From Escherichia coli (GTDB lineage Bacteria; Pseudomonadota; Gammaproteobacteria; Enterobacterales; Enterobacteriaceae), in the NCBI RefSeq assembly GCF_003334335.1, contig NZ_QOWQ01000157.1: a stretch of DNA of 697 nucleotides. One strand, given 5' to 3'. Below are positions 1-697 of this stretch, in pieces. A program made the position numbers and the translations under genes. A model generated the notes under the pieces. It saw only the letters and a list, made by a program, of their open reading frames with translations, was not told where the DNA came from and did no database searches. Numbering within the stretch: position 1 is the first letter of the stretch; every line of letters starts with the position of its first letter.

Positions 1-697
1 CTGGACCGGCTGGTACAGCAGGGCGGCTTTGACGGGCGGACGCAACGTTATCATTATGACCTGACCGGAAAACTCACACAGAGTGAGGATGAGGGACTTG
101 TCATCCTCTGGTACTACGATGAATCGGACCGTATCACTCACCGCACGGTGAACGGCGAACCGGCAGAGCAGTGGCAGTATGATGGCCACGGCTGGCTGAC
201 AGACATCAGCCACCTGAGCGAAGGCCACCGTGTTGCCGTCCACTATGGCTATGACGATAAAGGCCGCCTGACCGGCGAATGCCAGACGGTGGAGAACCCG
301 GAGACGGGGGAACTGCTGTGGCAGCATGAGACGAAACACGCATACAACGAGCAGGGGCTGGCAAACCGCGTCACGCCGGACAGCCTGCCGCCGGTGGAGT
401 GGCTGACGTATGGCAGCGGTTACCTGGCGGGAATGAAGCTGGGCGGGACGCCGCTGGTCGAGTATACGCGGGACAGGCTGCACCGTGAGACGGTGCGCAG
501 CTTCGGCAGCATGGCAGGCAGTAATGCCGCATACGAACTGACCAGCACATACACCCCCGCAGGCCAGTTACAGAGCCAGCACCTGAACAGCCTGGTATAT
601 GACCGTGACTACGGGTGGAGTGACAACGGCGACCTGGTGCGCATCAGCGGCCCGCGACAGACGCGGGAATACGGCTACAGCGCCACGGGCAGGCTGG
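1..697 (+). CDS. rhs: Internal fragment (5' and 3' partial) of an Rhs-family YD-repeat core protein, the beta-shell scaffold of a polymorphic toxin; both gene ends lie outside the window
   Basis: Seen in sequence: frame 1 is open for all 232 codons. Frame 2 has TGA at 62-64 and frame 3 has TGA at 30-32. The translation begins LDRLVQQGGFDGRTQRYHYDLTGKLTQSEDEGLVILWYYDESDRITHRTVNGEPAEQWQYDGHGWLTDISHLSEGHRVAVHYGYDDKGRLTGE and ends LVYDRDYGWSDNGDLVRISGPRQTREYGYSATGRL. It carries recurring G-x(3-9)-Y-x-Y-D-x-x-G-R-L-T motifs, the hallmark of RHS/YD repeats. Codon usage is CTG-rich with G/C at third positions. Established knowledge: this architecture and composition match the GC-rich core of E. coli-type Rhs elements. 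Core paralogs (rhsA/B/C/D) are too similar to tell apart from 697 nt without alignment, so the symbol is given only at family level. Confidence 0.93.
   Translation, partial: MDRLVQQGGFDGRTQRYHYDLTGKLTQSEDEGLVILWYYDESDRITHRTVNGEPAEQWQYDGHGWLTDISHLSEGHRVAVHYGYDDKGRLTGECQTVENPETGELLWQHETKHAYNEQGLANRVTPDSLPPVEWLTYGSGYLAGMKLGGTPLVEYTRDRLHRETVRSFGSMAGSNAAYELTSTYTPAGQLQSQHLNSLVYDRDYGWSDNGDLVRISGPRQTREYGYSATGRL
34..696 (+). repeat. Tandem array of degenerate YD (RHS) peptide repeats encoded within the CDS, about 20-24 aa (60-72 nt) per unit
   Basis: Seen in sequence: aromatic-x-aromatic/Asp positions recur with a roughly 60-70 nt period. Tyr codons heading the Y-D or Y-G/Y-x dipeptides fall at nt 55, 115, 178, 250, 343, 409, 463, 532, 598 and 670. 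Clear units are GRTQRYHYDLTGKLT (34-78), GLVILWYYDESDRIT (94-138), GEPAEQWQYDGHGWLT (154-201), GHRVAVHYGYDDKGRLT (223-273), GELLWQHETKHAYNEQGLANRVT (307-375), GTPLVEYTRDRLHRETV (445-495), and GPRQTREYGYSATGRL (649-696). The repeats are degenerate at nucleotide level, so this is a protein-level repeat rather than a DNA direct-repeat array. Confidence 0.8.

Follow-up and report, generated by a model that had tools for sequence, protein, structure and literature searches.

Results

The window is an internal fragment of rhsD

The DNA analyzed here, a stretch of 697 nucleotides referred to as the window, lies entirely within one gene of Escherichia coli. It is identical at 697 of 697 positions to rhsD of E. 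coli K-12 (b0497), and is found as an exact substring at positions 525,253–525,949 of NC_000913.3. It corresponds to nucleotides 1993–2689 of the 4,281-nt rhsD coding sequence, in frame, and thus covers codons 665–896 of 1,426. Frame +1 runs through the whole window, 232 codons, without a stop. The features of the window, all on the + strand, are the following.

1–697, + strand: internal in-frame fragment of the rhsD coding sequence, belonging to the GC-rich YD-repeat core (100% identity, RHS_core match, Tse5 alignment)
1–205, + strand: stretch that lacks a close paralog in K-12, as the 5′-truncated rhsE pseudogene has no counterpart of it and rhsA, rhsB and rhsC are about 77% identical
55–276, + strand: two YD/RHS repeat units (residues 19–52 and 60–92 of the translated window; PF05593, independent E-values of 0.014 and 0.0012)
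78–138, + strand: polymorphism block (sites 78, 122, 123, 132 and 138, with A/T in K-12 and G/C in BL21(DE3))
206–620, + strand: diverged stretch homologous to rhsE (36 mismatches over 415 nt, 91.3% identity; 21 synonymous at the codon level)
616–696, + strand: start of a third YD/RHS repeat (from residue 206; PF05593, independent E-value of 0.05)
621–697, + strand: first 77 nt of an exact rhsD/rhsE tract, the run being stopped by the end of the window

The translated window matches the NCBIfam model NF041261 (RHS_core) over model positions 669–899 of 1,261, with 496 bits and E = 2e-148. An earlier note had taken the whole stretch for a piece of Rhs core. Both this match and the full identity to rhsD bear it out, and the span from 1 to 697 is aptly delimited, as all of it is coding core. 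Antisense frame −2, which is interrupted by one stop in 232 codons, was considered as a gene and dismissed because the homology of the sense frame is overwhelming; such frames are a usual by-product of a GC3-rich gene. An internal search for DNA repeats in the window returned a trivial 14-nt family, and neither tandem nor inverted repeats.

When 5,426 complete E. coli genomes were searched by megablast, K-12 MG1655 was among the full-length matches at 100% identity, the matching genes being annotated rhsD. Forty evenly spaced rows were sampled from the 2,987 matching records, and the first 14 of them are 100% identical to the window. The exact allele is therefore present in about 1,000 finished genomes, a figure to be read as an order of magnitude. 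Nothing was found that contradicts the identification as rhsD. The window is thus read, with a probability of about 0.95, as a genuine and unblended piece of rhsD in its K-12 allele, located in the central part of the YD-repeat core.

The RhsD element is an accessory insert between ybbP and mnmH

The occupancy of the rhsD locus was examined in the 5,426 finished E. coli genomes with a query in which the terminal 1 kb of ybbP was fused directly with 1 kb from mnmH (selU). Both genes were found in 5,421 of the 5,426 genomes. The gap between them is at most 1.5 kb in 1,908 of 5,426 (35%), which therefore have no Rhs element between ybbP and mnmH. Strain Nissle 1917 provides a clean empty site, with a REP-like spacer of 140 nt in place of the 7,301 nt of K-12. 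Homology between the two strains ends 6 nt past the stop codon of ybbP and restarts 7 nt before that of mnmH. Since 35% of the genomes, and Nissle 1917 in particular, are without it, the 7.3-kb RhsD element is an accessory insert at a conserved site. The right end of the element is annotated as a truncated HTH gene, ylbG. Some variants of the ybbP–mnmH site are deletion remnants, consisting of IS1 together with ylbG or a DUF6531 fragment.

Relation of the window to the other Rhs loci of K-12

Compared by blastn with the Rhs loci of K-12, the window is 100% identical to rhsD, 92.7% to rhsE (over positions 206–697 only), 77.3% to rhsA and rhsB, and 76.6% to rhsC. The rhsA, rhsB and rhsC stretches differ from the window by 21 nt in length and by a dS of about 0.87. 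They have no 31-mer in common with it, the longest common run being 30 nt. Among themselves these three loci are very similar: over the homologous stretch, rhsA does not differ from rhsB (100% identity), and rhsC has 95.3% identity to either of them. The earlier statement that Rhs cores exist as several near-identical copies therefore holds for rhsA, rhsB and rhsC taken together, but not for the window, whose identity to them is only 77%. At this distance, rhsA, rhsB and rhsC are too diverged from the window for RecA-driven exchange or for collapse in an assembly. [quoted passage not shown] (2009) to Hill and co-workers (PMC2935791). With its high identity to rhsD and rhsE and its divergence of about 22% from rhsA, rhsB and rhsC, the window falls into the RhsD-E subfamily.

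The relation to rhsE changes along the window. The 36 mismatches to rhsE in the window are all located within positions 213–620, and at 36 of these 36 sites the base found is that of rhsD. From position 621 onwards the two loci are identical, over a tract of 848 nt in K-12 that spans nucleotides 2613–3460 of the rhsD coding sequence, after which the tips diverge. Positions 621–697 are the sole part of the window where short reads from K-12 cannot be assigned to one locus. The sudden switches from about 9% to 0% divergence suggest gene conversion or recombination between rhsD and rhsE. Recombination between paralogs, also put forward in the earlier note, finds support in this mosaic of exactly identical tracts. 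For the window, such exchange would take place with the rhsE copy only and would leave exact tracts that are specific to the strain (K-12, 848 nt; BL21(DE3), 2,327 nt).

Copies of the window in other strains

Searched by megablast, the complete genomes have a median of 5 places each that match the window. Two levels of identity were set through E-value cut-offs. At about 94% identity or more, full-length matches amount to 4,057 places in 2,987 genomes, with a median of 1 and a maximum of 4 per genome. At about 98.4% or more, counted with a 500-nt sub-window, there are 1,537 places in 1,343 genomes, with a median of 1 and a maximum of 2. About 14% of the carrier genomes hold two near-identical copies.

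BL21(DE3) illustrates the latter situation. Its rhsE locus contains a core pseudogene of 3.65 kb, longer than the rhsE of K-12 and with a fragment of vgrG in front of it, and this copy is identical to the rhsD of the same strain over 2,327 nt (nucleotides 574–2900 of the rhsD coding sequence), a tract that includes the whole window stretch. Six sites, common to both copies, distinguish them from the window. In BL21-type strains, short reads cannot separate rhsD from rhsE anywhere across the window stretch. A single-copy region with unique flanks, which was named beforehand as an outcome that would speak against repeat problems, is accordingly found or not depending on the strain and the position: the median is one copy, but the sequence is shared with rhsE from position 621 onwards in K-12 and over the whole stretch in BL21(DE3).

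The six differences between K-12 and BL21(DE3) all have A or T in K-12, and AT-biased amelioration was considered as their origin. It was rejected because the K-12 and BL21 haplotypes of the 78–138 block are each found in other lineages, which identifies an old polymorphism block.

Base composition of the window and of the RhsD element

The GC content of the window is 62.1% (433 of 697 nucleotides), which makes exact the "roughly 60%" estimated by eye. It amounts to 65.1, 44.8 and 76.3% at the first, second and third codon positions, respectively. Along the window, the 100-nt GC profile ranges from 51% at positions 51–150 to 70% at 351–450. The 29 intact genes that flank the RhsD element on either side in K-12 were used as background. 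They average 52.2% in GC content (s.d. 4.1, maximum 58.6) and 56.8% in GC3 (s.d. 7.3, maximum 72.8), so that the preference for G or C at third positions noted earlier is confirmed. None of 650 sliding windows of 697 nt in the K-12 flanks reaches 62% GC, the maximum being 60.4%. Over a larger sample, non-Rhs DNA taken from the surroundings of the five Rhs loci of K-12 (58.7 kb) has a GC content of 52.1%, in agreement with the value of about 51% usually quoted for the whole E. coli genome. The core is thus about 10 points richer in GC than its surroundings, as had been anticipated for Rhs cores, and the possibility that the host composition would resemble that of the window did not materialize, with 52% in the flanks against 62.1%.

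The codon choice in the window is atypical. ACG encodes 12 of 20 threonines and AGC 11 of 15 serines, and 18 of the 27 glycines are encoded by GGC as opposed to one by GGT. AGG occurs at 8.6 per thousand codons compared with 0.7 in the local genes, a more than tenfold difference.

The composition of the window extends over most of rhsD. In bins of 300 nt, the gene has 61–70% GC up to nucleotide 3600, before dropping to 46, 35 and 31% over the tip; the 2.6 kb that follow the gene have 40% GC. Because the GC-rich core contrasts with an AT-rich tip and with flanks of about 52% GC, the 7.3-kb RhsD element is a compositional composite. The stretches homologous to the window in rhsA, rhsB, rhsC and rhsE contain 61.5–64.4% GC (61.5–61.9% for rhsA, rhsB and rhsC). 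A Rhs gene of Escherichia albertii has a core with 62–63% GC, a tip with 36%, and a downstream flank with 46–57% per 1-kb bin. High GC is a property of the whole core family, found in all the Rhs cores of K-12 and in that of E. albertii. GC-rich Rhs cores have been on record since the 1990s. The layout as a G+C-rich core followed by an A+T-rich core extension is likewise documented (PMC2935791; PMC8636562).

Origin of the GC-rich core

By the conventional reading, the RhsD element was acquired horizontally, which is plausible. The accessory status of the element, together with its atypical composition, is consistent with acquisition. The earlier description of the core as "horizontally acquired" is therefore sustained in part. 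The atypical GC3 (z = 6.5) and the presence or absence of the element at a conserved site speak for it, but no donor was found and some of the site variants are deletion remnants. A donor was sought by scanning the contigs of a genome collection with the window protein, using exact peptide patterns whose reach is confined to close relatives. Two loci were returned, one in E. albertii (79% amino-acid identity) and one on an E. coli contig that looks misbinned.

The divergence of the copies also bears on the question. The cores of rhsD and rhsA are separated by a dS of 0.88 and a dN of 0.145, and all copies, including that of E. albertii, keep a GC3 of 72–77%. A dS of 0.88 is about the depth of typical gene pairs between E. 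coli and Salmonella. That the GC3 has been kept at 72–77% over such a distance therefore implies either that the split into subfamilies took place in a GC-rich background, prior to their entry into E. coli, or that the composition has been maintained. The first of these views, divergence in a GC-rich background before entry into E. coli, was reportedly that of Wang et al. 1998. The composition of the core may, instead of being the fading signature of a donor, be actively maintained.

Taken further, the high GC of the core could be a long-standing enterobacterial trait, sustained by biased conversion or by selection on mRNA or DNA, with the polymorphism between ybbP and mnmH reflecting mostly losses. 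Several observations fit this proposal. The GC3 is retained in every copy, including that of E. albertii, despite the dS of 0.88 between rhsD and rhsA. At the 36 sites that differ between rhsD and rhsE, G or C is present 21 times in one copy and 23 times in the other, so that neither copy is richer in GC. Conversion tracts between paralogs are evident, and several of the occupied-site variants are deletion remnants with IS1 and ylbG or a DUF6531 fragment. Finally, Jackson et al. (2009) call the rhs family ancient in Enterobacteriaceae and interpret clade I of E. coli as having expanded recently within the species (PMC2935791). The proposal is nonetheless judged unlikely, as the classical scheme of a GC-rich divergence prior to entry, reportedly that of Wang et al. 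1998, fits the same data, and as the clean empty site of Nissle 1917, with a REP-like spacer of its own, looks never to have been occupied.

A narrower version, to which we give still less credence, holds that the excess of 15–20 points in GC3 is no relic of a donor and is kept up within E. coli by gene conversion between the paralogous cores that favors G and C. The exchanges involved would be the same as those behind the exact rhsD/rhsE tracts. If this were true, Rhs elements would offer a natural test case for biased gene conversion in bacteria.

It is very improbable that the high GC stems from protein selection for the amino acids of the YD repeats (Gly, Arg, Ala, Pro and Asp). The GC contents at the first and second codon positions (65.1 and 44.8%) are slightly above those of the neighbors (60.1 and 39.8%; z = 0.9 and 1.4), and the window protein recoded with the synonymous codon usage of the neighboring genes would have 54.9% GC, compared with the local mean of 52.2%. 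The recoded sequence has however an expected GC3 of 56.6%, and the observed 76.3% lies 6.5 s.d. above it. As this departure is found with the protein sequence held fixed, the GC excess is mainly synonymous. Amino-acid content accounts for about 3 of the 10 GC points and codon choice for the remainder, and the codon preferences themselves are atypical, with ACG, GGC, AGC and AGG favored and GGT used for a single glycine out of 27.

The window as a possible assembly product

The earlier note raised the concern that the fragment might be a consensus of several paralogs. There are general grounds for such a concern: Rhs cores are repeated, with the median of 5 places found by megablast in each genome; rhsD and rhsE share exact tracts, the one in K-12 being 848 nt long and that in BL21(DE3) 2,327 nt; about 14% of the carriers hold two copies with an identity of about 98.4% or more; and a short metagenome contig, JALHET010000378.1, ends inside the Rhs repeat zone. 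That the window is a consensus or a chimera of collapsed paralogs is nevertheless scarcely credible, since it agrees with rhsD at all 36 sites that discriminate between rhsD and rhsE and matches exactly the finished rhsD of K-12 (697 of 697) and about 1,000 other complete genomes; it shares no 31-mer with rhsA, rhsB or rhsC, and a collapse in a B strain would yield the BL21 allele, which is six sites away from the window. The match to finished genomes shows that the allele is real, for the span of the window only. The suspicion of a paralog consensus is thus set aside. The broader warning about paralogs and collapse is too general for this subfamily: it is justified for the last 77 bases in a K-12-like strain, and in the minority of strains where rhsD and rhsE have been converted, but not for the sequence of the window itself.

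Contig JALHET010000378.1 merits a separate remark. Deposited as part of a Lentisphaerae MAG, it is 99.4–99.6% identical to E. coli vgrG–rhs junctions over all of its 3,462 nt, and it ends at coordinate 2822 of the rhsD coding sequence, in the repeat zone. It looks like a fragment of E. coli that broke off at the Rhs repeat and was later assigned to the wrong bin, and offers a concrete case of the effects of Rhs repeats in practice.

For the reading of short-read data, the results can be stated as a map of ambiguity. In K-12, rhsD and rhsE are confounded from window position 621 for 848 nt; in B strains, the whole stretch lies within the 2,327 nt that are confounded. For the window stretch, ambiguity with rhsA, rhsB and rhsC never arises. 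The warning that Rhs cores are near-identical should accordingly be applied by subfamily and by strain. The identity of the gene, the GC-rich core and AT-rich tip, the subfamilies, the accessory distribution, the exchange between paralogs and the cage function have all been described already. As rhsD is a textbook gene, the window has little meaning beyond this map.

Architecture of RhsD and comparison with known Rhs systems

The repeats within the window are weak when taken individually. Four matches to the Pfam family RHS_repeat (PF05593) were detected, the best with an independent E-value of 0.0012, and residues 19–58 match TIGR01643 (YD_repeat_2x) with 19.2 bits for a cut-off of 15.8. The match of full-length RhsD to the repeat family is strong, with E = 1.8e-47 over six stretches. 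Against RHS_core, the complete protein scores 2,787.7 bits (cut-off 2,000) and covers positions 1–1261 of 1,261. It contains a DUF6531 domain (residues 46–123) and a Rhs_assc_core domain (residues 1181–1258), and the core ends with the PxxxxDPxGL motif, in the form PLQQIDPMGL (residues 1249–1258). The C-terminal tip that follows the core matches DUF4329 (E = 1.3e-37). Directly downstream of rhsD lies ybbC, which is presumed to be the immunity gene for the RhsD tip, and then orphan fragments of cores and tips.

[quoted passage not shown] The DUF4329 tip would act as the toxin, and the product of ybbC would confer immunity. Over its full length, the window can be aligned with residues 571–801 in the shell of P. 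aeruginosa Tse5 (8cp6_B, E = 2.8e-21), and also matches the solved Rhs shells of 8qja, Tse15 (8uy4) and P. protegens RhsA (7q97). Because of this alignment with solved shells and of the published cage structures, the window probably encodes a part of the cage wall, to which its 232 residues would contribute by analogy with Rhs and Tc toxins.

The RhsD of K-12 differs from the solved Rhs effectors at its N-terminus and in its genomic setting. The solved effectors have PAAR or prePAAR N-termini and adjoin vgrG, whereas the N-terminal region of K-12 RhsD has DUF6531 only, with an insignificant trace of PAAR (E = 0.11), and no vgrG was found within 18 kb upstream, where ybbP is located, or about 18 kb downstream. 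The combination expected of an effector delivered by a T6SS, a PAAR or prePAAR N-terminus with linkage to vgrG or hcp, is thus missing from K-12 rhsD. To our knowledge, the T6SS is absent from K-12. Close relatives of rhsD in other strains do adjoin vgrG; the Rhs family works in linkage with vgrG, and the K-12 copy of rhsD is without it.

Within K-12, the rhsE pseudogene (b1456) belongs to the same subfamily as rhsD, from which it differs by its tip (from nucleotide 3461 of the coding sequence) and by its location between yncH and ydcD. The rhsA, rhsB and rhsC genes, which form part of the RhsABCF subfamily and are the original "rearrangement hot spot" copies, have the family, the GC content and the architecture in common with rhsD. 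With Rhs1 of P. laumondii (PMC8636562) and other solved Rhs effectors and Tc toxins, RhsD shares the PxxxxDPxGL boundary and would share the YD-repeat cage.

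Composition of the Rhs core

The cores of two subfamilies were compared:
L001 (K-12 rhsD locus), 18009-21782: rhsD core
L002 (K-12 rhsA locus), 4184-7921: rhsA core

Synonymous divergence between these subfamilies is deep (dS = 0.88, with dN/dS of about 0.16). GC3 is the same in all core copies, at 72-77%, including that of E. albertii. Over this deep divergence the composition of the Rhs core has stayed stable. On the minus strand of the window (1-697), frame 2 has a single stop codon in 232 codons. Near-open antisense frames are a usual by-product where the sense frame is GC3-rich, and this one does not count as evidence for an overlapping gene.

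Within the window, the K-12 and BL21 alleles differ at six sites:
Window 78, 122, 123, 132, 138 and 432: K-12/BL21 allele differences

All six have A or T in K-12 and G or C in BL21, and five are grouped where GC along the window is lowest. The K-12 bases at 122, 123, 132 and 138, four of the five clustered sites, are also found in L007, a vgrG-linked copy, while the K-12 base at site 78 is found in K-12 only. E. albertii shares the BL21 haplotype. As the haplotypes are shared with L007 and E. albertii, new AT-biased mutations were rejected as the source of the differences, which constitute an old polymorphism block.

Location and linkage of core copies

Matches to the Rhs core are almost exclusively chromosomal in the E. 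coli genome set, with plasmids accounting for 12 of 19,154 places and, among high-identity matches, for 4 of 4,057. Plasmids are not an obvious vehicle for the core.

L007, 1-3462: contig JALHET010000378.1, deposited as 'MAG: Lentisphaerae bacterium'
L009, 13335-17328: BL21(DE3) rhsE locus (NZ_CP053602.1 1,483,335-1,487,328)

E. coli vgrG-rhs junctions match L007 over its full length at 99.4-99.6% identity, so this contig is E. coli DNA wrongly binned into a Lentisphaerae MAG. Its end, at position 2822 of the rhsD CDS, falls inside the Rhs core and in the zone where rhsD and rhsE form an exact repeat; the assembly seems to have broken at this repeat.

In BL21(DE3), the rhsE locus carries a 3.65-kb Rhs core pseudogene. 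For 2,327 nt this core matches BL21 rhsD without a difference, implying that the two loci recently underwent gene conversion. The VgrG gene fragment directly upstream is a vestige of T6SS linkage, retained in BL21(DE3) but lost from rhsE of K-12.

The ybbP-mnmH site

L001, 17585-24872: ybbP-mnmH site, K-12
L011, 1301-1440: ybbP-mnmH site, Nissle 1917
L001, 22721-23407 (ylbH) and 23388-23878: orphan Rhs core-end fragment, K-12

The interval is polymorphic, with a 7.3-kb RhsD element in K-12 versus a 140-nt REP-like spacer in Nissle 1917. Further genomes have IS1 and ylbG, or a DUF6531 remnant, and some have an insert of about 0.5-0.9 kb annotated as a dinQ-type toxin. The K-12 orphan fragment lies downstream of ybbC and carries its own tip and small ORFs, an arrangement for which Jackson et al. 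(PMC2935791) use the term 'dissociated tip'.
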